From a phage, in NCBI GenBank assembly GCA_024613925.1, contig GCA_024613925.1_4713.1: 64,000 nucleotides of DNA; one strand, written 5' to 3'. Shown here piece after piece: positions 4,838 through 53,755 of this stretch (the first letter of the stretch is position 1; every line of letters begins with the position of its first letter). The notes under the pieces are model-generated. The model saw only the letters and a program-made list of their open reading frames with translations, ran no database searches and had not been told where the DNA came from. Position numbers and translations under genes: made by a program.

Positions 4838-4872
4838 CCTTCTCCCCAACCCGATGAGGGAAGGGGAGAAGG
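4838..4872. terminator. GC-rich stem-loop of the conserved family, between convergent genes; candidate bidirectional terminator
   Basis: CCTTCTCCCC-AA-CCC-GATGA-GGG-AA-GGGGAGAAGG; A8 tract upstream, GGCTATGCG downstream. Confidence 0.5.
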
Positions 4873-11330: not shown

Positions 11331-11428
11331 TGACTTATGTATCACGGTGCCGGATGAATGTCCGGTGCAATGAAACCATCCGCAACGTTGTCGTCAAGAA
11401 TATCGTCCAACGAAGCAGCTACGGTAGT

Positions 11429-13651
11429 TCAGTTAGTCTGAACAGGCAGCTTGATGTTTTCAGTGTAGACCTTACGCAGGTTCACAACGTTAATCAGACC
11501 CAGCAGCGGGCAGTTGTTAACGAAGCGGCAGCGCGGCTGAACCATGGTTTCTTTAGAAACCTGACCGTTACGGGTAACCTGAGCAACAGATACCAGTTCC
11601 GGTACGTACAGGAACATACCGAAGGTCAGCGGATCCGGAGAACCCTGGATACCACGAGACAGGGTCACGAAGATCTTATCACGCAGCAGGACGTTCGGGT
11701 TATCTACAACCACGAAGTTGAAGCTTACACCAACGGTACGGAAATCACCATCGGTCTGCAGGAACTGCGGGATGTAGTTGTCAGTTGCTACTACGCAACG
11801 CGGTTTCTCATCAGCGTTGGAAGACAGCAGCTGCAGAGCTGGCTGATAACCAGACTCGGAGTACATGCGATATGCCATCTCACGAATCACGTTCATGATC
11901 GCAGCGGACACTTCAGCACGACGTTCTGCAGTGGTGGTACCCTGAACAGATTTCTCCAGGTCCAGATTGATTTCTTCGAACCACGGACGGATCAGGTAAC
12001 GACCGAAACCTTCGATCTGGATGTCGCCGAACTGACGGAAGCGAGAGGTCGCAACCGCTTTCAGTGCGTCTTTGTAGCTGAACAGTTTCTCAACCATCAG
12101 GTTGTCGAAACGTGCGTTAGCAGCTTGGATCAGAACGTCCAGGTCGGCAGCGTTTTCTTCCCAATCCAGCGGACGAGGAATGGAGAACGGAGCCAGCAGG
12201 CCGATTGCGTAACGTTCTTGCTTCATGTTGAAGTCAAGGTGCTTACCGCGTTCACGACGGTTGCTGTTGTTACGACGGATACGCAGTTCGTAACCAACCA
12301 GTTTGAAGCTCAGGTCTTCAGCCAGTTGTTTGAACTCTTCGCTCTTACGCGGTTGTTCGATGTTGTCCTGATCAACCAGGCGATACAGTTCAGCGTTAGC
12401 GCCGTTAACACGCAGACCGGCTTTCTCTACGTTGGAAGAACCGTAAACTTCGATTGCCAGCTGAGCAGCGGATTTCGAATCGATGATGTCCTGCAGCGCT
12501 TCAGCTCGTGCACCTTTAACGTCAACGGTGTGCTCATCAACGAAGATGGAGTGGGTGTCGAACGCCAGGGTCATTTTGCGGAAGTCGCCTTCCAGGGATT
12601 TCTGGAAACCGTTGGTGATCAGACCAGATACGTCGAACGGTACGTAAGAGGTTTTGCTGTGCTTGGTAGATTTGATTTCCACCAGGATTTTGGTCAGCGT
12701 GATCTGGGCGTCCAGCGCATCGGTGTTGTCGCTGTAACCGTTAGCCAGGATGCTATCGTCTTCAGCAATACCGATCATGTCGATCAGTTTATCAACAGCC
12801 AGGTAAGACGTTTTATAAGTTACGCCTTTAATTTCGATGTTGCGCGGAGCAACGATAGCTTTGTCAACGAAGTACTGCGCGTTGGCATCGTCAGCACGAT
12901 AGATCGGATGCAGATCGGTCACGTCGTTGGACAGAACGTCGTTGTACATGAACGCATCCAGCAGCGGACGACGTACCCAATCAGCCGGAGTACCGTCAGC
13001 GTTACGACGCAGGTGGTTGAACACCAGCGGACGACGGAAAGATACGTCGTAACCGATCTGGTTCGGAGCCAGAACGATGGTGTTATACAGTTCGTTACCC
13101 ATGCGGCTCAGACGAGAAGCCTTCACGTTGAACACAACGGAGTACGGCATCATGTCACGCAGTTCTTTCTGGTCGTAAGACAGCTGAACCAGTTCTTCAG
13201 ATTCGCAACCGCAGGAATCAGCAGCCATCATGACGAAGTTAGAGCTGTCAACTTCACGGCCAGACGGAGTGGTGCTGATGTTCATGGAACGTGCTTGTTT
13301 AGCGTATTCCACCGGGTTACCATGAGCCAGCATGATCAGTGCTGCTGCACGAGCCTGCTGTGCGTTCATGGTGAACAGCTGTTCTTCAATACGCTGCTTC
13401 TCTTCCGGAGTGGTGGTTTCGAAGCCCAGCATGGACAGAACCGGTTCTTCTGCTTTACGGATGTCGCTGCTGAAGCTCTTAACATCCATTTCGTTAACCA
13501 GTTTGTCCATGGATTTGAAATCAACCTTAGAAGCAGATTCCATAGACAGGAAGGTGTTCTCCAGACCTTTGTCTGCTGGTTTGCTACCATTAGCGGTCAG
13601 GAACTGGCGAGTGGCCGCGACCTGTTGGCTAAGAAGGGTTTTATCATTCAT
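11429..13651 (-). CDS. major capsid protein candidate (740 aa; size as in phiKZ-type capsid proteins)
   Basis: Very strong codon bias (the antisense strand is stop-free for 766 codons), TGTAAAGGA RBS region, placed in a head-gene block next to the inner-body-like paralogs. No direct homology test was possible. Confidence 0.5.
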   Translation of the reverse strand: MNDKTLLSQQVAATRQFLTANGSKPADKGLENTFLSMESASKVDFKSMDKLVNEMDVKSFSSDIRKAEEPVLSMLGFETTTPEEKQRIEEQLFTMNAQQARAAALIMLAHGNPVEYAKQARSMNISTTPSGREVDSSNFVMMAADSCGCESEELVQLSYDQKELRDMMPYSVVFNVKASRLSRMGNELYNTIVLAPNQIGYDVSFRRPLVFNHLRRNADGTPADWVRRPLLDAFMYNDVLSNDVTDLHPIYRADDANAQYFVDKAIVAPRNIEIKGVTYKTSYLAVDKLIDMIGIAEDDSILANGYSDNTDALDAQITLTKILVEIKSTKHSKTSYVPFDVSGLITNGFQKSLEGDFRKMTLAFDTHSIFVDEHTVDVKGARAEALQDIIDSKSAAQLAIEVYGSSNVEKAGLRVNGANAELYRLVDQDNIEQPRKSEEFKQLAEDLSFKLVGYELRIRRNNSNRRERGKHLDFNMKQERYAIGLLAPFSIPRPLDWEENAADLDVLIQAANARFDNLMVEKLFSYKDALKAVATSRFRQFGDIQIEGFGRYLIRPWFEEINLDLEKSVQGTTTAERRAEVSAAIMNVIREMAYRMYSESGYQPALQLLSSNADEKPRCVVATDNYIPQFLQTDGDFRTVGVSFNFVVVDNPNVLLRDKIFVTLSRGIQGSPDPLTFGMFLYVPELVSVAQVTRNGQVSKETMVQPRCRFVNNCPLLGLINVVNLRKVYTENIKLPVQTN

Positions 13652-13800
13652 TGAAAGTATCCTTTACAGAATTAACTTATATAAGTCGGTCGATAGACCA
13701 TAGCGTACACGCGTGCATGCGCCACTATAGTATCAGTAAACACTTACCGTTATTGAGGTCGTGATACAACACTAAAAATGCCGCATAACTTTTCCCTACG

Positions 13801-39538: not shown

Positions 39539-42532
39539 ATGAGCGTAACCAACAAAGATCTTGCTGAACAGCTCAATCGCTATATGCTTTCACCTATTGA
39601 AATGCAGGCTGTTGCAAGCGATATGATTCGTTTGGCCTCTGATGGCGAGTTAACCCTGGTTGACCCCAGCTGTCCGTTTGTTTATCTGCTGGAGGTTGCA
39701 ACAGCAACGGCGGCGAACCAGAACGCACGAGATGAGTCCCGTGTTCGCGAACTGTATCCGAAGCTTGCAACCAACTGGAGCCAGCTCTATCGTTGGATGT
39801 ATGACGAGTCGTACGTCGGACGTTTCGCAATGCCGGGTAAAACGGAAATCATTTATTCGTTAGGGTATCAGGAAATCCTCGACCGGGCTGTAGAGATTCC
39901 CAACACCATCGCCTCCGATGATTTAAGCCGTTCTTACAGCCGTAAGTTAGTGATACCACGTACGACGGCGTTTACGGTAGCCGGAATGGATTTCGGGTTG
40001 CATTATCCCATCGAAATCCAAGTACAGGCGCACGATCAGATACGCGTTGTTTATAACACCGATAACATCAGCCCGTTGCAAACCTTGGAGAGTAACCAAG
40101 TTGAGTACGGGGTTGTTCGCGTAAAAGCGGGTAAAGTGTTGGTGATGCGTATCCCGCTGTTCCAGTTTAAAACGCTGGTAAAAGATGTGCCGTTTAACAG
40201 CGTTCACGGGATGAACAGCAGCATTACCTTCGAAGATCAGTTTTACCATTGTCGTGCGTACATGTCGTCGGACAACGATACCTGGACGGAGATAGCGACA
40301 ACACACAGCCAGCAGATCTACGATCCGTTAACACCAACCATCGCGTTACAAGTAGAAGGGAACAAACTGAACTGGCGTGTTCCTGAAATTTATTTGTCTC
40401 AAGGTACGATGGATAAAAGCACCATTCGACTTGAGGTGTTGACGACGAAAGGGAAAATCAGCGTCGACCCGTCTGATTACGACGTGACCGATTGGAAAGA
40501 TAACTACATCGATTTGTCGCCAAAAGCCGAACAGAAATACAGTGCGCCGCTAAGTGCGTTCAATATTAAAGGGATTTATAGTGAAGGGGCATTGTCGGGT
40601 GGACGATCTGCGTTAACGTTCGAGGAACAACGTGAACGCGTTATGGCGGGCGTGAACAAAACCAAGGTGCCGATCACAGGAACGCAGGTAGAGCTGGTGC
40701 TTCAAGATGCGGGTTATGGGATGGTGACCACCATCGATAACGTAACCAATCGTTCGTTCCTGGCAACCCGAGATTTACCGCAATTGAGCGACAGCGTGCC
40801 GCAAGCCGGTTCGTTGATGGGGTCTTTCTATACGTCAGCCGCAGCATTGGTGAAAAGTAAGTTTGTCGCTGATAACGGCGATCGTATTACGATTAAACCG
40901 GATTGCTTGTATCGTGACAGTAACGGAAGTATCGCGCTGTTGTCGGACGATGAAATTGACCGTATTAATGCAGGCAACTCCGATGCGAAGTTGAACGCGG
41001 TAAACAACACCATGTTGTTTTACAGTCCGTTTCATTACGTATTAGACGCAACAAGCGATTTCGACATCCATGCTTATTACCTGGATGCCCCTAAGATCGG
41101 CACACAAGCATTCCTCGACGCGAACGAGACAATCCCGTTAACCGCTATGGTGACCGGATACCGTCTGGATCGTATCGCTGAAGGATATCGTCTAAGCCTC
41201 ATTGTAGAAGGTAACGACGCATGGAAGGCGCTCGACGATAAAAACGTGCACATCCAGCTGGGGTTCAATCCGCGGGGTGAGGGCGATTATGCGACGATGT
41301 TGGCGTCACCGACAACCGATGAACAAGGTCGTCGTTTGTTCACCTTCGATATCACCACGAATTATGATTTTACGCGGATCCTGGCCGATGATTCCACGGC
41401 GTATGAACCGTATATCGCACTGACTTCGTTCTCGATGTATGAATCAACACCGCGGGATTATTGGGCATCACTGCAGCAGTATTTGGAAATCTTCCATGTG
41501 GTGACGGATTACGCACCGGAAGATGTCGACGGTATTTTACACAGTGCTTCCGATAATTACCTGGTTAAGAAACTTACGCTTCAAAATGGGTATTGTTTCT
41601 ACCGTGAACGTCTCACCGCAACCTTTGGTTATGATCTGGATGGCCTTTGGATGCGTTCTCGTACGGTGGCCTCGGAGATCACGTATAAACGTTACACCGA
41701 GAACATCCCGTGGGTGTATGACGAAGACATTCCAGCGACGGATGAGACCGGTTCGGTTATCATCGAGCAAGGTGATGATGGTACGTTGTCGGTTAAATAT
41801 CTGCATCGTAAAGGTGACCCGAAATTAAACAGTGATGGAAGCCAAGCCTATCGTTATCTGAAAGGCGACATCATGAAAGATAATTACGGTAATCCGATCC
41901 CTGTCGATGAACGTGAGGTTCTGCGTAACCTGGACATGTTCTTTATCGATGCGTCGTATCTGCTCGCGAACGATACGGACGTGATTGACTATCGTAACAC
42001 GATTCCTACACAGCTTATTGAGTGGATTCAGAACGATATCAGCACGTTCAGGAATTTCTGTTATGAGGAAACAGCGATTTCACTGTATCCTAAGCAATCG
42101 CTGGGGTATGTGGATGTTATTGTGGAAAACGGATTGGAAACAACGCTTCCTGCTGCCTTATCGTTCAACGTGACGCTTTACTTACCGGCTAAGCAATACG
42201 CAGACTTGGATCTACGTCAAGTCCTTCAAGCGATGGTATCGAAAGTCATCAATGAATGTTTAACATCCCGTACGGTGGCTAAAGCAGAAATGATCGCGAT
42301 GATTCGTGAAGAGGGTGGTGACGACATCCTGAACGTTGAAATCGATGATTTTGGACCAGGTAAGAACCTCAGTGTTTATACCGCGAAGAACGATGGTGTT
42401 CGTTGTGCGGTGAAGAAAGAGCTTTATGTGAAAGCGGATGGTATCTTGTCCGTACGCGAAGCGATTGATGTGAATTTTGTGAAACACGCACAAAGCAACA
42501 GTTCAGCGCTAGCGCAAGGCCTTCGTGTCTAA
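39539..42532 (+). CDS. large hypothetical protein (997 aa), virion-type candidate
   Basis: ATG with GAGGGA RBS, 3 nt after the previous stop; ends at hairpin 42554-42585. Confidence 0.55.
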   Translation: MSVTNKDLAEQLNRYMLSPIEMQAVASDMIRLASDGELTLVDPSCPFVYLLEVATATAANQNARDESRVRELYPKLATNWSQLYRWMYDESYVGRFAMPGKTEIIYSLGYQEILDRAVEIPNTIASDDLSRSYSRKLVIPRTTAFTVAGMDFGLHYPIEIQVQAHDQIRVVYNTDNISPLQTLESNQVEYGVVRVKAGKVLVMRIPLFQFKTLVKDVPFNSVHGMNSSITFEDQFYHCRAYMSSDNDTWTEIATTHSQQIYDPLTPTIALQVEGNKLNWRVPEIYLSQGTMDKSTIRLEVLTTKGKISVDPSDYDVTDWKDNYIDLSPKAEQKYSAPLSAFNIKGIYSEGALSGGRSALTFEEQRERVMAGVNKTKVPITGTQVELVLQDAGYGMVTTIDNVTNRSFLATRDLPQLSDSVPQAGSLMGSFYTSAAALVKSKFVADNGDRITIKPDCLYRDSNGSIALLSDDEIDRINAGNSDAKLNAVNNTMLFYSPFHYVLDATSDFDIHAYYLDAPKIGTQAFLDANETIPLTAMVTGYRLDRIAEGYRLSLIVEGNDAWKALDDKNVHIQLGFNPRGEGDYATMLASPTTDEQGRRLFTFDITTNYDFTRILADDSTAYEPYIALTSFSMYESTPRDYWASLQQYLEIFHVVTDYAPEDVDGILHSASDNYLVKKLTLQNGYCFYRERLTATFGYDLDGLWMRSRTVASEITYKRYTENIPWVYDEDIPATDETGSVIIEQGDDGTLSVKYLHRKGDPKLNSDGSQAYRYLKGDIMKDNYGNPIPVDEREVLRNLDMFFIDASYLLANDTDVIDYRNTIPTQLIEWIQNDISTFRNFCYEETAISLYPKQSLGYVDVIVENGLETTLPAALSFNVTLYLPAKQYADLDLRQVLQAMVSKVINECLTSRTVAKAEMIAMIREEGGDDILNVEIDDFGPGKNLSVYTAKNDGVRCAVKKELYVKADGILSVREAIDVNFVKHAQSNSSALAQGLRV

Positions 42533-42553: not shown

Positions 42554-42585
42554 CCCTCCTCCTTCCCTGATGGGAAGGAGGAGGG
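42554..42585. terminator. perfect 14-bp GC-rich stem-loop between convergent genes; candidate bidirectional terminator
   Basis: CCCTCCTCCTTCCC-tgat-GGGAAGGAGGAGGG; family variant in which the usual 2x2 internal loop is base-paired. Confidence 0.55.
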
Positions 42586-42594
42586 AATATGCTG

Positions 42595-45500
42595 TTATCT
42601 TACGTTATTGCTATTCTGCTGTTCGCTGAACCAACCGTACACCTTGAGATCGGTACCGTATTTCAATGCGATATACGCATTGAGCGCAGCACAGAACAAA
42701 GACGCGAATGCCCATATCAGCGAAGGATCAACATCTTCCGTTACCACCGGGAGAGTATTATCCGGTTCCCACGATGGAGAACCGTCCATGAACGTCGTGT
42801 ACCATTCCCGCCGTTGTTCTTCGGTGGTAAAGTCGCTATGGGGTTCCAATGCTTCTTTTGCCAAACGTCGATATTCGAACATATGCGTTGCTAAAGCCGA
42901 TGAGTTACCAGATTCGCCTTCATAGTTCGGATCCACCGCATAACAGAGTTCTGTTGAATCTAACAAAGCAACCGCCTGTGTGATGCTGTCGGCAGTGCCT
43001 GCACCATAGAGCTCGATAGACTGCGAAAGCTTCTCACAGAACGCATTTAACGCGGCAGGATTGGACACCTGAAGGTCAAGGCCTAATGTCCACGGATAGT
43101 TACTGAACACACCCGTAAACCGCGGCATGACACCCAACAGATGTTGTCCGATTACGGCACGGTTATAAACAGCCCGGTTATAGACTTGAAACGCAGCCTC
43201 CAAGGCTTGGTTATAATGACGACGAAGTTCGTCACGCGAGTTGCGGAATCTGTTTGCCGCAAGACTCGTGGCTGCGACGCTACAAACATCGTAATTGGTG
43301 GACGAGAGCACAGTTTCGTTAAGATCGAACGATTCCTGTTTCAACGATCCGCTAACCGCTGCTGCTTCGCTGTTTGCTTTATCGACAACTGTACTCAAAG
43401 CGTTGATGTAACGTTTCGCTCGGACTTCCAACCATTGTGCAATGCCGAGAATATCCACCGCAGCTTTAGCAAGATCGCGTGCATTCACGATTTCGTTCTT
43501 CAACGCCCCTAAACCTTTATTCTCAGGCGAAGAGGCTTGTTGACGAATCATGCTGTTCAACATGGTAAGCAGATTATCCAACTCATGTCCACTGACCTTG
43601 TTACGCGCATCGGTAATCGGCCCTTGCAGGAATTTACGGCAACCGTCGTTGTATCGAATCAGTTTATCCACATCGATCGATTCGTTCGTAGATTCCTTGA
43701 ACTGATCCTTCAATTCTTCACGGTAGTCATGGATTTCACTTGCGAGATTATCGATAGTGATACCGTTATGTCCAAGAAGAACTTTATTGAAGCTACCTTT
43801 CTCGAATGCAAGAGCAAGACCTTCACGAATCTTAGCGAGTTTATCCTGATCGAGTTCACGACCGTTCGATAGCTCTTTCACTTCCGAGCTGATTAGTGCC
43901 GCAACGTTACCCAGATTGTCGGTAACCCCTTTGAACGCTCCCGACCAGATCGTTCCTGCTTCAGCATATTTCGCAATGGTCTGAATACCGACGGTGTGCA
44001 GCGACGCTAAACGTTTCTTCGTGCCTTCGGTAAGCAGTGCGTCTTTAGCTCGCGTAAGTTGACTGTTATTAGCTTCCGCCTGCTGAATCGCCGCTTTCGC
44101 ACTTCCATTACGCCAGCTCTTAACCAACCAATCAACCAAACGTTTTAAGATGTTGACGGTGTATTCCATCGTCCGCCGTAACGTTTCCCACGCGCTTTCT
44201 GCGGTATAGATGCCGTACCCTTCCATCTTCAACGCTTTCAAGCTTGTTTGACGTGCCAACCATTCTACCGTTGCAGAACAAACGTTTACTAATGCTTCCA
44301 GGTAGTTGTAATAGACGTCTGTTGCGGCCGTTTCGTTGAGCTTTGAATGCAGATAAAACTGATCGTAAAGTTCGTCGTCATCGCCGAAGGCATCGTAGTT
44401 CCACAGCTCAGTATCGCAGCCTGTGCCGCAGAAGACGTCTGCTGTTGTAAACTCTTTAAGCGCTTTAGCCGCATCATTCGTCAGGAATTTACCTGTTTCA
44501 ACTACATCATCGACGTTAAGCTTGGGGAGTTCATCAGTAACTGGCTCTTGCAACATTAACGTGTTGAAGAATGCGTTGTACTTGTATCCGAGCCATTTTG
44601 GATAACTGCTTTCAGGTATCGTAGACAACGGCTTGATTTTCTTGGCTTCAGCCAGCGTGTCTTTTGCAACCTGATATTGGTTTTCCCCGGCCTTGATACG
44701 ACGTAATGCTTTTTCTTCCAACTGCTGGAGTTTGGCATGCCGTGCTTGTGCGGGAGCTTCAACAAGTTTTTGTACCGACCGCACTGCAGAAATCGCTTCT
44801 TTTAATACGATCATCGGCATACGAACTTTGCCGTCGTCAAAACTAAGAGCCCGAGCGACACGCTTACTTACGACAGGTTTGTCGTGGATATTTCGTTCCA
44901 CCCACGATTTGTTTGCGTAAGTTTGGGTGAGCTGCTGCTGGATATTTTCAAGGTATTTCCAGCTTTTGGACGCTTTGCTATCCAAAAGCGGATTCGGTCC
45001 CTTCTTATCGAAAAGTTTCAGAATCGGATCAAAGAAACCTTCCTGTACGAGATCGATACACGTGTAACCATCAGCCGCTTCGATTTCCTCTTGGGTTTTA
45101 TCCCAGAGTTGTTCACTGTGTACCGCACGAGCTGTTTCTGATACGGACATAATAACTTCAGTGACAACCTCAGCGTAAGACAATACTGCCCGCACCCACT
45201 CTACCAACATACGCTGATAGATAACACGTTGACATTGACAACGTGTGATGATGGCGAGATAACTTACGCTGTCGAGTTGTTCATTCGTACGAACATCCTC
45301 AACTTGTTCAATTAGTTGTTTAACTAACTGTGCTGTCTCTGGGTAATCGTGGACGACGTCGCGAATAACTTGCGAAGCATACACTGCGGTACCAAGGGCG
45401 AGATGGAGTTTGGTTGCATCCCACTCTTTTTCTGCTGTTGCCGGATTGTTCGGTATTAGGTAACCGATATCGTCGAAATATGGCTTAATAACATCGATAT

Positions 45501-46191
45501 TAGTCTTACTCTTAGTCGGTATCAGCGTATCATCAATGTTGCTTTGGTCTGGTGTTAATGCTAGCATACCCTTGAGAATTTGAGTATCAGCAGCGTATAA
45601 CGAAGTTAATGCTTCAGTTACGTCAGCGAGATCGATAATAGGCGACCATACCTTCAAGAGTTTACTTTCGTATTTCTCAATCGCGATTTCGATATCTTCC
45701 TTTACATCGGGATGATCGATAAGACGACCTACCGTCTGTTGTATCTCGGCAAATCGGTTGACATGATTTTGAGTCAATGCGGTAAAATCGTCAACGTACG
45801 ACGCATTGTCTTCAAGACGCGTAAGTTCCTGCTCCAGAAGATCTTTTACTTGCGTGGCGGATGCGTTTCTCAACTGTTCCCCGATAATCGCGATGGCTTT
45901 ATCGACAACACGGCAGGCTTCATTGAAACCGGTTGTTGAAGGTAACTCGGTCCATAATGCCAGCGGCTTACCTTCCATTGCGTCAGGAAGGGAATATGAC
46001 AACATTGCTAGTTGTTGACGTGATACCTGTTTGTCACGATGTAACGTTTCTTTCAACGCCAGAAGCTCATCAAGACCCACACTGCTAGGGATCGTGGGAT
46101 GTGATACGGCGTTGATATTTTCTGTCAATGACTCAAGAACCAATAAACCATTTTCAGCGGAAGATAACCCTGCTTTAAGGTATTTGTTCAT
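42595..46191 (-). CDS. giant hypothetical protein (1198 aa), predominantly helical by composition
   Basis: ATG with GGAG RBS immediately after hairpin 46207-46237; no catalytic motif recognised. Confidence 0.55.
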   Translation of the reverse strand: MNKYLKAGLSSAENGLLVLESLTENINAVSHPTIPSSVGLDELLALKETLHRDKQVSRQQLAMLSYSLPDAMEGKPLALWTELPSTTGFNEACRVVDKAIAIIGEQLRNASATQVKDLLEQELTRLEDNASYVDDFTALTQNHVNRFAEIQQTVGRLIDHPDVKEDIEIAIEKYESKLLKVWSPIIDLADVTEALTSLYAADTQILKGMLALTPDQSNIDDTLIPTKSKTNIDVIKPYFDDIGYLIPNNPATAEKEWDATKLHLALGTAVYASQVIRDVVHDYPETAQLVKQLIEQVEDVRTNEQLDSVSYLAIITRCQCQRVIYQRMLVEWVRAVLSYAEVVTEVIMSVSETARAVHSEQLWDKTQEEIEAADGYTCIDLVQEGFFDPILKLFDKKGPNPLLDSKASKSWKYLENIQQQLTQTYANKSWVERNIHDKPVVSKRVARALSFDDGKVRMPMIVLKEAISAVRSVQKLVEAPAQARHAKLQQLEEKALRRIKAGENQYQVAKDTLAEAKKIKPLSTIPESSYPKWLGYKYNAFFNTLMLQEPVTDELPKLNVDDVVETGKFLTNDAAKALKEFTTADVFCGTGCDTELWNYDAFGDDDELYDQFYLHSKLNETAATDVYYNYLEALVNVCSATVEWLARQTSLKALKMEGYGIYTAESAWETLRRTMEYTVNILKRLVDWLVKSWRNGSAKAAIQQAEANNSQLTRAKDALLTEGTKKRLASLHTVGIQTIAKYAEAGTIWSGAFKGVTDNLGNVAALISSEVKELSNGRELDQDKLAKIREGLALAFEKGSFNKVLLGHNGITIDNLASEIHDYREELKDQFKESTNESIDVDKLIRYNDGCRKFLQGPITDARNKVSGHELDNLLTMLNSMIRQQASSPENKGLGALKNEIVNARDLAKAAVDILGIAQWLEVRAKRYINALSTVVDKANSEAAAVSGSLKQESFDLNETVLSSTNYDVCSVAATSLAANRFRNSRDELRRHYNQALEAAFQVYNRAVYNRAVIGQHLLGVMPRFTGVFSNYPWTLGLDLQVSNPAALNAFCEKLSQSIELYGAGTADSITQAVALLDSTELCYAVDPNYEGESGNSSALATHMFEYRRLAKEALEPHSDFTTEEQRREWYTTFMDGSPSWEPDNTLPVVTEDVDPSLIWAFASLFCAALNAYIALKYGTDLKVYGWFSEQQNSNNVR

Positions 46192-46206
46192 AAAACACTC
46201 CGTTGA

Positions 46207-46237
46207 CCTAGGTGGAGGCCAATAACCTCCACCTAGG
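46207..46237. promoter_or_regulatory. 12-bp stem-loop just upstream of the RBS of the 1198-aa gene
   Basis: CCTAGGTGGAGG-ccaataa-CCTCCACCTAGG; different sequence from the main hairpin family. Confidence 0.45.
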
Positions 46238-46272
46238 GTTGAACAACGCGTACGGTTATACGGTACGCACGA

Positions 46273-49068
46273 TTACGCTAATTTACCGAAACCGGCTTTC
46301 TGTAGTTTCTCGTTGATCAGTTTTGCTTCCGCGAAAACATAATCACGATACGCAGTAACTAATCCGTCCACCCGTGAGCGCAAGGCTTCTTCGAAGCTAT
46401 ACCACGCAGCGATTTCACGAATCTGTGCGTTGATATAATCAACGGTTGAGTGAAGCTCGGTTGCGTTTTCTTGCGGGATGGCTTTCACCTGGCGAGCAAC
46501 GTCATTTAAACGACGGAACTGTGTTTCGATTTCTTTAAACTTACTGTCGGCAAGTTTGCTGAATTCATCACCGGAACGGGTAAATAACAGATAGCTGTTG
46601 CCGTCAAGTGCGGTCGCTAACTGCTGAAGTACGTTGGTGTCCGGATACACTGGGGTACCGCTTTGCAGTACTTTCTCACCGAATTCCGCGAAGTCCTTCG
46701 GTGGTAAGTGCGCAGACGTTGTCAACTCGTTGAAACGGAAAGTCAGCGAATTATCATACAGCATCCGGTACGCTTCCATACCCTGTTTCATGGTACCAGC
46801 CAGGTTAGCCAGACGCGGAGCAATCTCGCCTTCTTTAGCGCGTTTCTGGTCTTCTAACGCCCCTTCGAGTTCTTTACACTGGTCGTTCAGATACACGATA
46901 CGATCGGGACGCAGACGACGCATCTCACGAAGAATAGTATCCAGCTTACCTTCCTGGAAATAACCTAACGTTAAAGACGTACACGCTTGCTGAAGACGAT
47001 CGAACACCGGTAAGGTTACCATCTCTTTACGGATACCATCAACAATCGCAGAAACAGCCGAAAGTTTCTGTTCGGTAGTTAATGGAACGTCAGAGACCGA
47101 CTTACTCGGCGCACCAACAACGTTACGCATTGCGTCGGTATCCTCGGTTTTATCAACCTCTTTACGAACATGCTCGTCAGGAACATAAACGTTCGCGTTA
47201 CGTTTCGCCTGCTTGATAGCATCGCTGGCCGCTTTTTCGGTGGCAGCTACGCTATCGGTACGTTTCTTCAAGAGTTCGATAATCCAGAGCAACAGACGAC
47301 GAATCGCGGTATAGGCCGTCGTGATGATGACGCCGATAACAGCCATCTTCATGATACCGAACGATTCCATGGTCGGCTCTAACGCCTGGTCTGGCATATA
47401 CCGTTCACGTAGCTCGAGATAGATCTGCTCGTCCGGTTTGCTGATCTCACCACGATGCGATGTCCGATAGATAGCTTCATCAATTTCAACAAGATCTTTG
47501 CGTGCCTGACGGTCTGTTTCGGTCAAATAAGCGCAGCCGGATACGTCGTCTTCAAAACTTTCGAACTTAAAGAAATCGACAACCATCTTGGCAAGCGTCT
47601 CTTTCTTAGCAGGGTCGAATGTCTTCGCATTTTCTTTTATTTCCTTGAATTTCTCTTTATAGTCATTCAAGGGTTTTACCGCCCTTGTCTTCAACGCGTT
47701 ATAGATAGTTTTCCAACTTTCTTCACGTTCTAAGATAAGGAAGTAATTTTTGAGTTCAAAAGCACGATAACGTGCAACGAGCTGCTCCACCTGAATGTGG
47801 GCGAGCTGGATATCCATTAACCAACGCGACATCGCCGAGATCAAACGGCTATAAGCGAACAACGTTTGGTAGGTTAACTTCATGTATGTTTCATACAGCT
47901 CAATATCGCCGCTCTGAATATTGGCCGTTGGATTCATTTCCTTCGTTGCTTTGAAAACTTGCTCTGCTTCTTTCAAGGTCTTCTCGAACTTAACCTCGTT
48001 GAAAGCAGTGAATGGCTCAGCCAACTCGTGCATTTTATCATGAAGCTCGCGTACCCATTCTTCCTTGTTGTTGCGAATACTGATGTCGTCATGAAGCTCG
48101 GTTTGATGTTTTCGTACCCATTCTTCCACGATATCGGCTGCGGAAACAATCGGGACGCGATCTGAAATGAGTGGGACGATCGCGTGAAGCGCCCCGACAC
48201 ATTCTGGTGTGTCCCAGTATTTTTGGAGTTCATCACGGAAACGGTTGATGTTTTCTAAGGTGGTACCTAAATCAAGGAAAGTACCGCCATTATGACTCAT
48301 TTGTGCAACCAGATCGGCAAATACCTTTTGTTTTTCGATGACAAAAGGAACCATCTGCATAAGCCACTCAGCGGTTGCTTTAGCCTTTTCTTTCAGGTTC
48401 TTATCGGCGATTTCTTTGAGGTTAATCGCACTACCGTATCCGGCCAGTTCTTTGTAAATATCACTAAGTGTCATCTCTTTATCCAACATTTCTTTGAAAC
48501 GTGGATAATCCGCACCTAACGCGTCGATGACTTCTTGGATGACGTCGTCTGTGGTAGCGATAAATTTATTTGTGCCGCCGTAATGTTTCCAGATTTTCTG
48601 TAGCATCTTCTTAAAGAATTCGAAGACGAATGTCCAGATACGCTTGATGAGTTCCCAGACTTTCTTCGCGCCATCAACAAACAGTTTAGAGACCTTAGCA
48701 ACGAATCCTTCCTGCACCAACTCAACGCCGTTACGTGACGGGATTTCCGTGAAGAAAGCATCCGGCAGTTGTTTCGGGAACGCGTCACCAAGACGCATAC
48801 GCAGTTCGGGTACATCAGCGCGAGAAATACCGCGTGTCGTTAGTTGCTCGTGAAGACGAACGTTTTCTTCACCAGAGGCTACGAATTCGTTAACATCGAA
48901 GGACACCATTGCTTCCTGATCTTCGGTGGTAACGACGCTTGAACCATCGCTGGTTTGGATGTCTTCGTCAGGGAATGCCATGAGCATACCGTGACGCATT
49001 TCAACCACCCCGTAATCGGTTGCTAAACCGAATTCGTTATGATCGGGGGTAATAACTGGGATACTCAT
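46273..49068 (-). CDS. giant hypothetical protein (931 aa) with one predicted internal TM helix
   Basis: AAGGAG RBS; ATGA overlap with the upstream gene; hydrophobic segment MAVIGVIITTAYTAIRRLLLWII near residue 570. Confidence 0.55.
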   Translation of the reverse strand: MSIPVITPDHNEFGLATDYGVVEMRHGMLMAFPDEDIQTSDGSSVVTTEDQEAMVSFDVNEFVASGEENVRLHEQLTTRGISRADVPELRMRLGDAFPKQLPDAFFTEIPSRNGVELVQEGFVAKVSKLFVDGAKKVWELIKRIWTFVFEFFKKMLQKIWKHYGGTNKFIATTDDVIQEVIDALGADYPRFKEMLDKEMTLSDIYKELAGYGSAINLKEIADKNLKEKAKATAEWLMQMVPFVIEKQKVFADLVAQMSHNGGTFLDLGTTLENINRFRDELQKYWDTPECVGALHAIVPLISDRVPIVSAADIVEEWVRKHQTELHDDISIRNNKEEWVRELHDKMHELAEPFTAFNEVKFEKTLKEAEQVFKATKEMNPTANIQSGDIELYETYMKLTYQTLFAYSRLISAMSRWLMDIQLAHIQVEQLVARYRAFELKNYFLILEREESWKTIYNALKTRAVKPLNDYKEKFKEIKENAKTFDPAKKETLAKMVVDFFKFESFEDDVSGCAYLTETDRQARKDLVEIDEAIYRTSHRGEISKPDEQIYLELRERYMPDQALEPTMESFGIMKMAVIGVIITTAYTAIRRLLLWIIELLKKRTDSVAATEKAASDAIKQAKRNANVYVPDEHVRKEVDKTEDTDAMRNVVGAPSKSVSDVPLTTEQKLSAVSAIVDGIRKEMVTLPVFDRLQQACTSLTLGYFQEGKLDTILREMRRLRPDRIVYLNDQCKELEGALEDQKRAKEGEIAPRLANLAGTMKQGMEAYRMLYDNSLTFRFNELTTSAHLPPKDFAEFGEKVLQSGTPVYPDTNVLQQLATALDGNSYLLFTRSGDEFSKLADSKFKEIETQFRRLNDVARQVKAIPQENATELHSTVDYINAQIREIAAWYSFEEALRSRVDGLVTAYRDYVFAEAKLINEKLQKAGFGKLA

Positions 49069-49505
49069 GCATTCTCTCCTTGCAGTGCGTTAGCGAAAGC
49101 CGTTGCGAGTTGCGCAACCAGCTTAGGATCAACACCTTCGATAACGTCGGGCAGTCCTGCGGTTTCTTGGTCACGAACAGCGGAGGCTAATAACAACATG
49201 GTTTCAGGTGCTGTCGGCTCGTGCACCATGCGGTAACGCAAGCACCAGAAATAGCGAGCGACGTCTAACGCGTCAGCTAACCCGATAACCAGTACCTTGT
49301 TCAGCTTATCCAGCCCTTCACGGATTTTAGGGAGATGTTCACGAACGAAGATGCTATCCGCAGTCAGATCTTCTTTTTCAGCGAATACTGGCATGCTGTA
49401 ACCGGCGATGTAACCTGCGGCAATACTTAATGCACGGGTCTGTTGTTCGGCCGGGAAGTCACGTACCAGGTCTTTCAGCTGAACGGCGAAATCAGAAATA
49501 TTCAT
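49065..49505 (-). CDS. hypothetical protein (146 aa)
   Basis: ATG with AAGGA RBS. Confidence 0.5.
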   Translation of the reverse strand: MNISDFAVQLKDLVRDFPAEQQTRALSIAAGYIAGYSMPVFAEKEDLTADSIFVREHLPKIREGLDKLNKVLVIGLADALDVARYFWCLRYRMVHEPTAPETMLLLASAVRDQETAGLPDVIEGVDPKLVAQLATAFANALQGENA

Positions 49506-49538: not shown

Positions 49539-50858
49539 TTACGCGACGACAGAGTCGAGTTTCGCTGACACTTTGAACAGATCGTTGTTGATAACCGTAG
49601 ACAGTGTTTTCTGAACCTGCTCCTGCTTCACGGCTTGATGAACGTCAGGACGCAATGCGATGGTAATGAGCTCCATAATGGTACGATTATCGTTGAGAGT
49701 TTTCAAGATCTTGTCGATTTCCTTTATTGCGTCTAATGTCGATACGCGGATATCCTGAGGCAAATCGCGATCTTTAAGACGCCCAACCAACTCTTGTTTT
49801 AATTTCGCAACACGATCCTTATCACTGGTATACGTGGAATAGGTGAAGTCATACTGCGTTATTGTTTTCAGGTTGACGAAAAGAGCCACCGTGCCCATTG
49901 TACCCAGGAATGGGTTAATTAACGATAAACCGGCGATTGCACTAATAACTGACAATGAACATATGGCATATTGCGCCCAAACACTAACGCGATCCCTTAC
50001 TGATATTCTTCCGAAGTGTTTATACATCTTCGCTAGTGTGTCTGCCATTGCAGCCCCACCACCATGACGGGTGACGAATTGATCAGCAGCAAATTCCGCT
50101 GAGGTATCAGAATACCGTCCGGTATGCGTTGCGACACGTGCCTGTTCTTCTTTATTGCTTATATACACGGTATACCAAGTGGCAACATCGCTTGATTCCG
50201 CAATGGCGTTGACATCAACCGTTGTGCCCATCGCATCGTTTAATGATTTCGCGAGAGTGATCTTTTTCTCTTTATCCGTTGTTTGCAGTAGTTCGCGTGC
50301 GACGGTTGCGAGAGAAAAATCGGTCTTAGCGGATTCGGCGATAAATTCCAGGAAAGTAAAAGCATGCCCAACCTCGTGCATGATAAGCGCTGCTTTGTTT
50401 TCTGGAATAAATTCCGTGGTACGAATAAATCCGTCGGTTACTAATACACGGATAGTGATTTTCTCGAATGCGCCTTTCACCCTACCGTTGACAAGATCGA
50501 CCACACCGACGACTTCGTCGATGTTTTTGCTTAACTGTTTAAAGTCGCTGTTTCGGTAGAACTGTTTACGCCATTCCTCAATAAGCACGTTGTTTTTTGT
50601 AATATCCGGAGTAATACAGAAACAGTTAACTTCACTCATGTTCGGTATTACTTCTGTCTGGATAGTCAACCCAGTGTATTTGCGTATTAAATCGGTTAAT
50701 ATTTTACCACCGATATATTTTACCTTTTCCTCATAGCTGGTAAGATTATCCATTGTTTTGAAGAACTCGGTCATTTCCTTGAACATGGAACCATCTTGAA
50801 ACTTGATGGCCTCCATCGTTAATTCGTCATGACCATACACGCGTTGTAGTAATGACAT
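49539..50858 (-). CDS. putative membrane-associated zinc metalloprotease (HExxH ... ExxAD, M48/M56-like)
   Basis: HEVGH at residues 161-165 and EFAAD at 255-259 (spacing typical of HtpX/Ste24/BlaR1-type gluzincins, from memory); two hydrophobic helices at about residues 293-330. Confidence 0.5.
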   Translation of the reverse strand: MSLLQRVYGHDELTMEAIKFQDGSMFKEMTEFFKTMDNLTSYEEKVKYIGGKILTDLIRKYTGLTIQTEVIPNMSEVNCFCITPDITKNNVLIEEWRKQFYRNSDFKQLSKNIDEVVGVVDLVNGRVKGAFEKITIRVLVTDGFIRTTEFIPENKAALIMHEVGHAFTFLEFIAESAKTDFSLATVARELLQTTDKEKKITLAKSLNDAMGTTVDVNAIAESSDVATWYTVYISNKEEQARVATHTGRYSDTSAEFAADQFVTRHGGGAAMADTLAKMYKHFGRISVRDRVSVWAQYAICSLSVISAIAGLSLINPFLGTMGTVALFVNLKTITQYDFTYSTYTSDKDRVAKLKQELVGRLKDRDLPQDIRVSTLDAIKEIDKILKTLNDNRTIMELITIALRPDVHQAVKQEQVQKTLSTVINNDLFKVSAKLDSVVA

Positions 50859-51080: not shown

Positions 51081-52580
51081 ATGAGCGAACAAGAACGAAA
51101 ACCTAAGAAGAAACTGCTCGGTATTCAATGTCGACACATCAGCTATAACGAAGCGAACGATGGCAGCAAGAACGACCTCATGATCGCAAAAGAGATCATG
51201 TTCTTTGATGATAATACGCAAGCGACGAACCTTCGCTTCTTCGAGAATTACAAACGTCCGTTTTGGGTGACGGTAGAGAGTAAACGCAAGAACAAATATA
51301 AAAAGGAAAGCGAGAAGCTATCGCATGTGCGTCGCTACGATGTCCGTCAAAGTGAACTGGTTGAAAAGATCAGTTCGGTGCTTTATAAAAGACGTGCTGA
51401 TGATAACACCCGTTTACAACAGCTTGCACGGAGTCCCTACCTCTATGGCACGGACGTTAGCGCCAGCTGTTATTTAAAAACCCAATACAATACAAAATGG
51501 CCGGAATACGTCGATAAATTACCTGCTTCCATTGCCTGTTTCGATATCGAAACCGACGTTGTCCACGGGCACGGTAAGATCGTCTGTATGTCTATTACAA
51601 TGGGATACAATGCGATACTTTGCTATACCAAGGACTTCGTTGGTCATATTCCGAATGCGATTGAGAAAACCCATGAGAAGATTCGATATTACCTGGCCGA
51701 ACGTCTGAACACCAAAGAAGATCCGCACGCATTTGAAAAATACCAATACGATGTTCGAATCGTAGAAAGTCCAGCACAAGCGGTCATCCAATGCATGCAG
51801 AAGGTTCACGAATGGCAACCGGATTATCTCCTTGGCTGGAATATCGCGTTCGATATTCCGCGTATGCTCCAGGCACTGAACGAGGAAGGGTATCGTCCCG
51901 AGGATGTTTTCTCCGATCCTCGTGTACCACCTAAATACCGTATTGCTCGCTGGGTGCCACCGAAGACCGACAAGGTATCTGCTTCAGGTCGTAAAACCAA
52001 CCTTACCCTTGAGCAAACCTGGCCGATGTTTTATACGATGGCCACGTATCAGGTTATGGATGCGATGTGTGGTTATAAGTTCGTTCGTTTAGGAAGACCG
52101 GATGAGGGACGCTATTCACTCGATGCGGTATTAGAGCGAAATAAATGCCATACGAAATTAAAAGCAATTCCTGGTACAGAAGGGTTCACAGAGCTCGCCT
52201 GGCACGAAGAGATGCAAACGAACCATCAAATCGACTACGGCGTATATAACCTTTGGGATAACCAAGGCATCGAGGCGTTGGACCAGAAAACAAAAGACTA
52301 TTCGATGACCATCCCTATTCGTTTGGCGGCGTCGGATTTGAAAGATTTCAGTTCTAACCCTAAACGTATCTGCGATAAACTTTTCTTCGTTTATCTTAAC
52401 CGTGGGGAAGTCATGGGATGCACCGCCGACGATATGACTCAGGAAGAAGATAAGTGGGTTATCTCACGAACCGGACATATCGTCACATTACCATGCGATC
52501 TCATGGCGGACAACGGCATTCATCTCTTCTGGGATATGCCGAACCTGAGAAGTTATATTCGATTATTTGTTGCGGATTAA
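51081..52580 (+). CDS. family-B DNA polymerase, N-terminal 3'-5' exonuclease part (exon 1 or N-terminal fragment)
   Basis: Exo I FDIETD (residues 154-159, nt 51540-51557), Exo II GWNIAFDIP (about 253-261), Exo III-like YQVMD (324-328). No motif B or C before the stop at 52578-52580; the called stop is probably intron sequence. Confidence 0.65.
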   Translation: MSEQERKPKKKLLGIQCRHISYNEANDGSKNDLMIAKEIMFFDDNTQATNLRFFENYKRPFWVTVESKRKNKYKKESEKLSHVRRYDVRQSELVEKISSVLYKRRADDNTRLQQLARSPYLYGTDVSASCYLKTQYNTKWPEYVDKLPASIACFDIETDVVHGHGKIVCMSITMGYNAILCYTKDFVGHIPNAIEKTHEKIRYYLAERLNTKEDPHAFEKYQYDVRIVESPAQAVIQCMQKVHEWQPDYLLGWNIAFDIPRMLQALNEEGYRPEDVFSDPRVPPKYRIARWVPPKTDKVSASGRKTNLTLEQTWPMFYTMATYQVMDAMCGYKFVRLGRPDEGRYSLDAVLERNKCHTKLKAIPGTEGFTELAWHEEMQTNHQIDYGVYNLWDNQGIEALDQKTKDYSMTIPIRLAASDLKDFSSNPKRICDKLFFVYLNRGEVMGCTADDMTQEEDKWVISRTGHIVTLPCDLMADNGIHLFWDMPNLRSYIRLFVAD

Positions 52581-52648
52581 GAAATAAATCGGTTAAGTAT
52601 TACTACTCTGTTCGATGGTTATGGGATAACCAAATGGAGTAGTCATGC

Positions 52649-53755
52649 ATGAATAAATGGTATTTACCAGAGGCACGTTTTAAATACTACGCAACTGACG
52701 ATGGTCTTTTCCATTCAACTGGAGAGGCTGTTCCGGTTACCGTTAAAGATGGTATCTCGTATGTCGAGATCGACTGGTATCGTGGTCTAGGTCTATATGA
52801 CGCCGGACTCGCTGTTATGTGTGCGTTGAGAGCGATAAACATACCAATCTACTTACTTGATCAAGCATATTCTCTTTACATTGACGGGAATCCTGAGAAT
52901 GTAAAACGTGAGAACCTGCTTTACCGTTTCAAAGGCGGTAGGTTGGAAGTACCTGGATGTCCCGGCTATTATTTCATCCCCTTCCATTCTCGTTATGCTA
53001 TTAACGAGGAAGGTTTGGTGATCAATGTCGAGACGGGGTTCGAAAAACGCTGGTCGCAAATGAAACCTAACAAGAAACAAAAGACCCATGGCGGTTACGT
53101 TTACCAACGTACGGTAAATGATAACGGATTCACATCCCAGCTTTATCAGCATCGTGCTATGGGTTACGTGTTTCTTGAATACGGTGCCGACGTTATGGAT
53201 AAGACAATAAACCATAAGAACGGCATCAAATGGGATAATCGTCCATGTAACATTGAGTGGGCAACGTATACGGACAATAATAAGCATGCGGTTGATAGCG
53301 GTCTTCGTACAGAAGGATTGCATCCTGTTAAGGTTAAGGATTACAACACCGGTGAAGTCAGGGTATTCCCTTCAATCGCTGCGTGTTGTGCTGCTTATCC
53401 ATGCTTGGAACGTAAACGTGTTTGGTATTGGATGACGCGTAAAACGAAATTCATGCCAGCCTGCAATCTGTATTTCAAAGAAGTTGACGATGATACCCCA
53501 TGGCCAGATTGGCAGATCGGACAGCCTCGTCGTCTTCAAGAATATACGATGCCTAACCCTATCGCAGCTATCGATAAACAAACTGGTAAACGTTATGTGT
53601 TTGCATCAATTGCTCACGCACAACGAGAGACAGGTGTTTCTAACGTGACTATCATGAAGTACTGTCGTAATAGGCTTACAGAAGGTCGTTCTCCATTCAT
53701 CTTCCGCTATTTTGAAGATGTTAGTTCGATGCCTGTAGGCCTTAACGACGCTTAA
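52649..53755 (+). CDS. HNH homing endonuclease (I-HmuI-like)
   Basis: GGAG RBS; HNH core INHKNGIKWDNRPCNIEWATYTDNNKHA; two helix-turn-helix-like modules (FPSIAACCAAYP and FASIAHAQRETGVSNVTIMKYCRN). Confidence 0.8.
   Translation: MNKWYLPEARFKYYATDDGLFHSTGEAVPVTVKDGISYVEIDWYRGLGLYDAGLAVMCALRAINIPIYLLDQAYSLYIDGNPENVKRENLLYRFKGGRLEVPGCPGYYFIPFHSRYAINEEGLVINVETGFEKRWSQMKPNKKQKTHGGYVYQRTVNDNGFTSQLYQHRAMGYVFLEYGADVMDKTINHKNGIKWDNRPCNIEWATYTDNNKHAVDSGLRTEGLHPVKVKDYNTGEVRVFPSIAACCAAYPCLERKRVWYWMTRKTKFMPACNLYFKEVDDDTPWPDWQIGQPRRLQEYTMPNPIAAIDKQTGKRYVFASIAHAQRETGVSNVTIMKYCRNRLTEGRSPFIFRYFEDVSSMPVGLNDA

Follow-up and report, generated by a model that had tools for sequence, protein, structure and literature searches.

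Escherichia phage Goslar is a nucleus-forming jumbo phage that infects E. coli, and two of its proteins, gp65 and gp66, have been built into a vertex binding complex at the capsid vertices' inner face, a five-fold helical assembly that has a dimeric gp66 core and occupies the 11 non-portal vertices (bioRxiv 10.64898/2026.04.21.720040). The same preprint equates gp65 with gp86 of phage PhiKZ and gp66 with PhiKZ gp85, and finds a second folded domain of gp65 in the place of PhiKZ gp28; the homologous PhiKZ complex has also been described, and there gp86 is a proteolytic product (PMC11297242). Goslar gp64, gp65, gp66 and gp67 are all present in the label-free quantification table of virion mass spectrometry (MS), in which gp64 is represented by 48 peptides, 46% coverage and about 110 copies with no substructure assigned, and gp67 by about 48 copies with no assigned position (bioRxiv 10.64898/2026.04.21.720040). 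Here we describe the corresponding locus of a close relative of Goslar, at positions 42,595 to 49,505 of a 64,000-nucleotide stretch of phage DNA (GenBank assembly GCA_024613925.1, contig GCA_024613925.1_4713.1; the whole stretch is referred to below as the window). The locus encodes proteins of 146, 931 and 1198 amino acids (aa) beside a 439-aa HExxH protein, and it is probably a late head block in which the gp66- and gp65-type proteins form the inner vertex complex, the gp65- and gp64-type proteins are precursors cut after Glu, and the gp67-type protein is a packaged metalloprotease.

The vertex complex assignment is carried by direct comparison with Goslar, in which the 931-aa protein is 95.1% identical to gp65 and the 146-aa protein 99.3% identical to gp66 (tblastn). 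The two proteins match PDB chains 11fg_Cj ('PVC protein gp65', 1990 bits) and 11fg_C ('PVC protein gp66', 310 bits), respectively; entries 11fg and 11mk hold a full-length gp65-type sequence together with gp66 under that same name, and entry 36za holds 55 gp65 chains (residues 134-934, 801 aa) and 110 gp66 chains (142 aa). Their near-identity to these solved structures shows both proteins to be vertex binding complex subunits, and this core of the locus is already known from near-identical orthologues solved by cryo-electron microscopy (cryo-EM). Gene order, the ATGA-type coupling region, the hydrophobic helix and the predicted cleavage sites are the same as for Goslar gp65 and gp66, and the differences, point substitutions and a 4-aa insertion or deletion in gp65 only, include nothing functionally distinguishing. 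The two genes therefore add little, their structure and position in the Goslar capsid having been published. The gp65 and gp66 chains of 36za carry the molecule name 'Inner-peripheral baseplate spoke gp32', which looks like a labelling slip.

The genes, as given by the list of open reading frames (ORFs), and the parts of the 931-aa protein referred to below are as follows, with a vertical bar marking a predicted or mapped cut.

49065-49505, minus strand: 146-aa ORF, Goslar gp66 type
46273-49068, minus strand: 931-aa ORF, Goslar gp65 type
48709-49068, minus strand: aa 1-120 of the 931-aa protein, a predicted N-terminal propeptide with the end LVQE|GF, from alignment to PhiKZ gp86
47269-47358, minus strand: aa 571-600 of the 931-aa protein, GIMKMAVIGVIITTAYTAIRRLLLWIIELL, a hydrophobic helix immediately behind a predicted PTME|SFG site
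42595-46191, minus strand: 1198-aa ORF, Goslar gp64 type
49539-50858, minus strand: 439-aa ORF, Goslar gp67 type

A preliminary description of the window, made from the DNA letters, had placed three minus-strand ORFs of 1198, 931 and 146 aa at these coordinates and had suggested that their products might be virion proteins. Both points were borne out, the second by the presence of Goslar orthologues of all three in virion MS, and since homologues of the window proteins number in the hundreds in two large protein searches, the three ORFs are real rather than chance reading frames. Those searches returned Goslar-like sequences only, without annotation or Pfam domains. The same description held that nothing like the module could be recognised by motif, which remains true of motif libraries, none of the 931-aa, 146-aa and 1198-aa proteins matching a Pfam family at E<=0.01, but not of the structural literature, where the gp65 and gp66 orthologues are solved.

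A long helical protein beside baseplate genes could in principle be a tape-measure protein, and the sole functional PHROG label obtained, a weak one for the 931-aa protein, is indeed phrog_1272, 'tail length tape measure protein' (E 1.6e-5), while neighbours of the module encode a tail-tube initiator and a baseplate wedge protein. However, the near-identical Goslar gp65 is built into the capsid vertex map, the flanking baseplate genes lie on the opposite strand behind a probable terminator hairpin, and the phrog_1272 match would most simply reflect likeness between long helical sequences. A tail or tape-measure role was rejected on the capsid-vertex position of the orthologue, and we attach practically no probability to it. 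The preliminary description had taken the proteins for something other than standard tail proteins, and that judgement stands, the weak tape-measure match being contradicted by the capsid location.

Comparison with PhiKZ extends the assignment from the two proteins to the locus. PhiKZ gp84, gp85 and gp86 lie at the same locus beside the homologues gp87 and gp88 (structure PDB 8Y6V, PMC11297242), and gene order and orientation are shared by Goslar, PhiKZ and PhiEaH1, in agreement with pairwise BLAST; in PhiKZ, as in PhiEaH1, the genes for gp88 and gp87 converge with those for gp86, gp85 and gp84. PhiKZ gp84 corresponds to the 439-aa HExxH protein of the window. PhiKZ gp85 resembles the 146-aa protein in position and size (149 versus 146 aa), the equivalence being taken from the Goslar preprint, and direct sequence similarity to the 146-aa protein was found by BLAST in the PhiEaH1 and RTH11 (Xanthomonas phage) counterparts only. 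The counterpart of PhiKZ gp86 is the N-terminal half of the 931-aa protein, at about 22% identity and with cleavage sites aligned. The gp86 slot itself differs in scale: PhiKZ gp86 has 422 aa, whereas the window has about 2,100 aa there in two genes, including the domain in the gp28 place.

Maturation of the 931-aa protein by removal of a propeptide of about 120 aa fits these alignments. VQE-120 of the 931-aa protein aligns exactly with the mapped PhiKZ gp86 cleavage site, which is SQE-122 in literature numbering (PMC5694885), and a W/F-rich helix follows both. In the deposited composite model, the Goslar gp65 chain begins at residue 134, 14 residues past the predicted site. Goslar virion peptides were looked up in the portion of the preprint's supplementary table that lists peptides starting with A to E, and this portion does still include an N-terminal gp65 peptide, ADVPELRMR, at low intensity. 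By analogy, the propeptide would be cleaved in this phage. A comparable arrangement occurs in SPN3US gp47, which lies at the gp86 position, has a long propeptide cut after Glu (ALE-111) followed by a hydrophobic, predicted transmembrane helix, and is encoded at a locus described as fast-evolving (PMC5694885).

The gp64-type gene holds the remaining value of the locus, as it encodes an abundant virion protein without an assigned place in the Goslar model. The 1198-aa protein has only 20 matches at E<=0.001 among 1.84 billion representative proteins, and a sequence search of the PDB with it returned no match. (The 'gp64' of two Corbett/Pogliano papers is PhiPA3 gp64, which is unrelated to Goslar gp64.) Compared with Goslar gp64 the protein is a mosaic, with residues 1-389 at 47% identity, residues 390-654 absent from Goslar and residues 655-1198 at 98%, and from this comparison and the recurring motifs it can be divided into four parts.

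45040-46191, minus strand: N-domain, aa 1-384, with a 20-aa leader ending LVLE|S and a helical bundle, end LVQE|G, 47% identical to Goslar gp64 residues 1-385
44221-45039, minus strand: module X, aa 385-657, 273 aa, bounded by LVQE|G and LKME|G and absent from Goslar
43333-44220, minus strand: C-domain, aa 658-953, end LKQE|S, 98% identical to Goslar
42595-43332, minus strand: C-terminal tail, aa 954-1198, with a hydrophobic helix at 1158-1176 by Kyte-Doolittle analysis

The C-domain is nearly invariant across 19 family members, and a 32%-identical homologue of the 1198-aa protein, without the cassette, occupies the same locus in a metagenomic phage. Goslar virion peptides bear directly on how the protein is processed. 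A semi-tryptic peptide, ANSEAAAVSGTLKQE, gives a stronger signal than its tryptic form, which indicates that Goslar gp64 is cut after ...LKQE|A (LKQE-953|S in the window protein), and a peptide of the C-terminal tail, EALEPHSDFTTEEQR, is abundant. Within the listed portion of the table, the gp64 peptides that could be checked were detected for the C-domain in six of seven cases and for the N-domain in one of seven (Fisher p=0.03). Because of the semi-tryptic LKQE peptide and this bias towards the C-domain, we infer that the gp64-type product is a polyprotein inside the head, which the prohead protease cuts after Glu; the N-domain would be largely a targeting part or propeptide, and the conserved C-terminal fragments the retained products. 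The other gp64 sites are predicted from motif recurrence and from the boundaries of insertions and deletions.

Taken together, the locus would work as a set of late head-morphogenesis genes that correspond gene for gene to PhiKZ 84-86 and lie beside baseplate genes (PhiKZ 87/88). Dimers of the 146-aa protein and the 931-aa protein would form the vertex binding complex and dock inside the 11 non-portal vertices, the 931-aa protein entering the prohead with its propeptide of about 120 aa, which the prohead protease would remove after Glu-120 as it does in PhiKZ gp86. The 1198-aa polyprotein would consist of a 20-aa leader, a variable N-domain that is mostly cleared, module X as an optional cargo and a conserved C-terminal part, would be processed on the C-terminal side of Glu at LVQE|G, LKME|G and LKQE|S, and would leave its C-terminal part in the virion at roughly 100 copies. 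The 439-aa neighbour would be a head-packaged HExxH metalloprotease.

Several points weigh against this account. Goslar gp64 is not among the chains of the deposited Goslar model, and its location in the head is deduced rather than placed in that model. Among peptides starting with A to E, one of the four predicted gp64 cleavage sites has peptide support, and the P3 residue at the predicted sites is V, K or T, versus the S, A or G of the PhiKZ motif. The full-length AlphaFold2 (AF2) model of the 1198-aa protein has a mean predicted local distance difference test score (pLDDT) of 46, and the gp86-like fold of its N-domain, considered next, is suggested by a weak Foldseek match (E 0.054) and by profile matches that are not significant. 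Location and processing in this phage are carried over from Goslar and PhiKZ, and the Goslar authors themselves argue that the vertex binding complex may load after capsid assembly and may not be an integral structural part (bioRxiv 10.64898/2026.04.21.720040).

The position of gp64 in the head could be more specific than a loose internal one, if gp64 is an extra subunit of the vertex complex, a tandem paralogue of gp65 and PhiKZ gp86 that fills the unassigned helical-bundle density beside gp65. The N-domain, at residues of about 100-350 (pLDDT 70-86), is the sole confidently modelled part of the 1198-aa protein, and the top match of the gp64-type model in a Foldseek search of the PDB is PhiKZ gp86 (chain 8y6v_G, probability 0.98, TM-score, or template modelling score, 0.42). 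The neighbouring 1198-aa and 931-aa genes also encode a common leader motif, LPDA...TE[IL]PS..G, and a common LVQEGF site, and three collinear matches join the gp64 and gp65 family profiles in hhalign, each at a probability of at most 5% and from two alignments that are both too shallow. The Foldseek match to gp86 and the shared leader motifs suggest that gp64 and gp65 are tandem paralogues, with no single score significant by itself, neither that of hhalign nor that of Foldseek. The copy number of gp64 estimated by MS, about 110 per virion, equals 2 x 55, and unassigned helical density adjoins gp65 in the Goslar penton map (bioRxiv 10.64898/2026.04.21.720040), for which gp64 is a candidate. 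The authors of that map, however, compare the density to the PF12699 fold rather than to gp64, and the gp86-like domain of gp64 is its hypervariable and apparently under-represented N-domain, which would be odd for a fixed structural subunit. On this evidence a role as vertex subunit is possible but rather doubtful; it is compatible with the head-internal polyprotein that we prefer.

How the polyprotein diversifies is best seen at module X. A survey of the junction in 120 clusters of Goslar-like sequences found three alleles: LVQE|GFFDP...(273 aa)...LKME|GYG as in the window, LVQE|GFFDPTKME|GYG as in Goslar, where a 9-aa remnant is retained in place of the module, and LVQE|GYG. The limits of the cassette coincide with predicted Glu|Gly sites in all three allelic states. 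N-domain type and cassette presence reassort freely, the four combinations being represented by 44, 35, 35 and 6 clusters. At least two deeply diverged N-domain types occur among Goslar-like phages. What is new at this locus is modest: a long gp64 allele whose cassette appears to be bounded exactly by predicted protease sites, and a hypervariable N-domain that reassorts with that cassette.

Module X has about 15 distant relatives, which are stand-alone proteins of about 300 aa or units of polyproteins and which have [VIL]-S-[TMV]-E|[GS] on either side, in agreement with the published motif of the PhiKZ-type prohead protease, S/A/G-X-E (PMC5694885). The AF2 model of the module (pLDDT 73.8; predicted template modelling score, pTM, 0.74) finds as neighbours in BFVD other jumbo-phage proteins of about 300 aa, the best from Eowyn (2e-10, TM-score 0.74), followed by uncharacterised proteins of Deimos-Minion, Noxifer and RP31. 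Farther off come proteins whose annotation is internal head or virion structural protein, those called internal head at TM-scores of about 0.3-0.4. Several of the phages with such neighbours also carry a gp63-type baseplate gene. A search of the PDB with the module X fold gave nothing significant. Membership of module X in PF12699 (phiKZ_IP) was considered and rejected: two relatives reach 17 bits where the Pfam gathering score is 27, the hhalign probability is 0.5%, obtained with a local alignment of PF12699-type proteins from PhiKZ, Goslar and PhiEaH1, and the 1198-aa window protein has no Pfam match to PF12699.

Some relatives of module X in other jumbo phages (P0125-P0128, P0132, P0135, P0137 and P0139) are polyproteins in which units separated by S-x-E sites accompany a domain resembling nucleoside 2-deoxyribosyltransferase; PF15891 scores 1.1e-09 in P0128 and a sub-threshold 0.0018 in P0125, and the domain was recognised in the others by eye from shared motifs. 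The arrangement suggests that an enzyme domain is packaged into those capsids.

These features recall the internal proteins of T4 and the PF12699 'inner body' proteins of PhiKZ, which have N-terminal targeting peptides, short or long, cut after Glu, are retained in the head as cargo and diversify rapidly. Module X and its relatives carry predicted sites of the T4/PhiKZ type, and a few of its structural neighbours are annotated as internal head proteins; the difference is that the cargo here forms an inner stretch of a larger protein and does not have a gene to itself. One may speculate that gp64 is a carrier polyprotein whose N-domain and two protease sites act as a 'socket' through which swappable cargo (module X, or none) is brought into the capsid and then delivered to the host, a proposal that we consider unlikely on present evidence. 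The released cargo, perhaps together with the conserved C-terminal fragments and their hydrophobic helix, would enter with the DNA and have its effect in the host cell or the early-infection vesicle, for instance against host defence or on a membrane, and the reassortment of N-domain and cassette among near-identical Goslar-like phages would reflect an arms race. If true, this would be of moderate interest to jumbo-phage specialists; the long gp64 allele in any case gives a concrete and testable idea of the way in which chimalliviruses may bring variable cargo into their heads.

The preliminary description had seen in the module a possible membrane-remodelling, ejection or host-interaction machine, on the strength of a hydrophobic helix near residue 570 of the 931-aa protein. 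The helix is present, at residues 571-589, where the mean Kyte-Doolittle value over 19 residues is 1.68, borderline for a transmembrane helix. The claim that one of the two giant proteins has a transmembrane helix thus holds in borderline form for the 931-aa protein and fails in its restriction to that protein, the 1198-aa protein having a more hydrophobic segment of its own at residues 1158-1176 (mean 1.93). The 571-600 helix shows weak alignments to two others, the amphipathic one behind LVQE|GF in the 931-aa protein itself and the one behind LKME|GYG in the 1198-aa protein, and among the compared products of the locus the mature fragment repeatedly opens with a helix that is hydrophobic or amphipathic. 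The 571-600 helix also falls inside the 134-934 range of the capsid-bound Goslar gp65 chain, and the preprint describes no membrane in the capsid interior that holds gp65 (bioRxiv 10.64898/2026.04.21.720040). By analogy with Goslar, the 571-600 segment is probably a structural helix inside a capsid-bound protein and not a membrane anchor in the virion. A membrane-remodelling or host-interaction machine finds no support here, as cryo-EM places the gp65 and gp66 orthologues on the inner face of the capsid and the helix resembles the amphipathic ones found behind each predicted protease site of gp65, gp64 and PhiKZ gp86.

A later membrane role would have the gp65-, gp64- and gp67-type proteins leave the capsid after the DNA, their helices inserting in the host membrane and aiding penetration or shaping the vesicle. 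All three large proteins have hydrophobic helices, some directly after predicted maturation sites, and in PhiEaH1 gp232 an AVE|S site is followed by a strongly hydrophobic helix, which favours ejection; this helix and, according to the literature, that of SPN3US gp47 are more hydrophobic than the 571-600 helix. The SPN3US protein from this genomic position, gp47, is essential, and its mutant virions look normal (PMC5694885); the ejection role that its authors propose is drawn from this mutant phenotype and not from localisation, and the protein is likened to the window proteins by position and features. Portal-less empty Goslar capsids are without the vertex complex (bioRxiv 10.64898/2026.04.21.720040), and the shaping of the early-infection vesicle membrane is stated in the literature to be an open question. 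Set against this, DNA-filled Goslar and PhiKZ virions hold the proteins in an ordered state at the vertices, attached to the capsid shell (bioRxiv 10.64898/2026.04.21.720040; PMC11297242), the 571-589 segment is borderline in hydrophobicity, and the matching helices in other units are amphipathic or polar, as is the C-terminal helix of the distant gp64 homologue P0122, more polar than the 1158-1176 helix of the window protein. The injection tests of the Goslar preprint covered gp60, gp61, gp208 and gp209 (bioRxiv 10.64898/2026.04.21.720040), and a preprint on PhiKZ vesicle constituents makes no mention of gp84-86; a core-genome paper does not mention gp84-86 either. A role primarily at membranes is disfavoured by the order of the proteins and their binding to the capsid, and ejection survives only as an add-on to the head block, one that we regard as improbable. 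Should the proteins with hydrophobic helices be shown to be ejected, this would bear on the formation of the early-infection vesicle.

The remaining member of the head block is the 439-aa neighbour, which the preliminary description had called a metalloprotease. The label is plausible for a zinc enzyme with HEVGH at residue 161, but the window protein falls under the cut-off of Pfam Peptidase_M48 (12.2 against 20.3 bits), which its counterpart PhiEaH1 gp235 passes at 21.6. In four distant chimalliviruses, HE[IV]GH and the Glu..DQF motif downstream of it are both invariant, and BLASTP links the protein to PhiKZ gp84 (2e-14) and PhiEaH1 gp235 (8e-49); a search of the PDB with a gp67-family profile returned nothing significant, Ste24p appearing at E 1.4. 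A stretch near residues 299-330 of the protein is hydrophobic, and at residue 16 there is an N-terminal LTME|A site of a conserved x-x-E|A type, with VSVE|A and ISME|A as family variants, which suggests that the family enters the prohead with a short leader predicted to be cleavable. Its sequence thus points to a probable M48-like zinc metalloprotease packaged in the head.

The source phage can be placed by its DNA, the region being 92% identical in nucleotides to that of Goslar and the window genes matching Goslar gp62-gp69 one to one, by which measure it is a close relative of Goslar, a Goslar-like chimallivirus. The plus-strand flank includes a gp62-type gene, whose product matches Pfam Phage_TTP_15 (2e-79), and the gene for a 997-aa gp63-type protein, also on the plus strand, which ends at 42532; in the Goslar preprint gp62 is the tail-tube initiator and gp63 the baseplate wedge protein (bioRxiv 10.64898/2026.04.21.720040). 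Goslar-like proteins form well over a hundred clusters at 90% identity, from isolate assemblies of E. coli, Salmonella and Shigella and from contigs of 235-248 kb, and the 1198-aa window protein is 100% identical to a third party annotation (TPA) E. coli entry from a 238,567-bp contig. Goslar-like phages seem commonly to accompany enterobacterial isolates.

Within the block, 33 nt lie between the 439-aa and 146-aa genes, and the 146-aa and 931-aa genes share the ATGA stop/start overlap at 49065-49068 that the preliminary description had reported. Its view of three coupled genes is right for this pair and not for the 931-aa and 1198-aa genes, which are separated by 81 nt. Two hairpins bracket the 1198-aa gene.

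42554-42585, no strand assigned: perfect 14-bp stem with a 4-nt loop, between the convergent 997-aa (gp63 type) and 1198-aa genes
46207-46237, minus strand: hairpin with a perfect 12-bp stem, within the 81 nt that separate the 931-aa and 1198-aa genes

The first, whose 14-bp stem had been noted before, is a probable bidirectional terminator; a simple scan for a hairpin followed by a T-run did not flag it. The second is intact in Goslar through two compensatory double changes and has an RNA fold z-score of -3.9, making it a candidate terminator, attenuator or RNA-stability element, and this conserved hairpin, which separates the gp64-type gene from the gp67-gp65 genes, is a further modest novelty of the locus. 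The 64-kb window contains three strong loop-containing hairpins only, these two and one at 4838-4872, all with arms rich in GGAGG/CCTCC, which may serve the phage's own RNA polymerases as terminators or RNA-stability elements.

Elsewhere in the window, the region 51081-53755 holds a gene for a DNA polymerase B (exonuclease domain) followed directly by an HNH/NUMOD1 homing-endonuclease gene, of the Goslar gp68 and gp69 types, and the polymerase ORF spans positions 5-494 only of a PHROG profile of 576 positions. A 766-aa ORF at 11354-13654 on the plus strand and a 740-aa ORF at 11429-13651 on the minus strand form a nearly exact antisense pair, of which one is presumably a shadow ORF.

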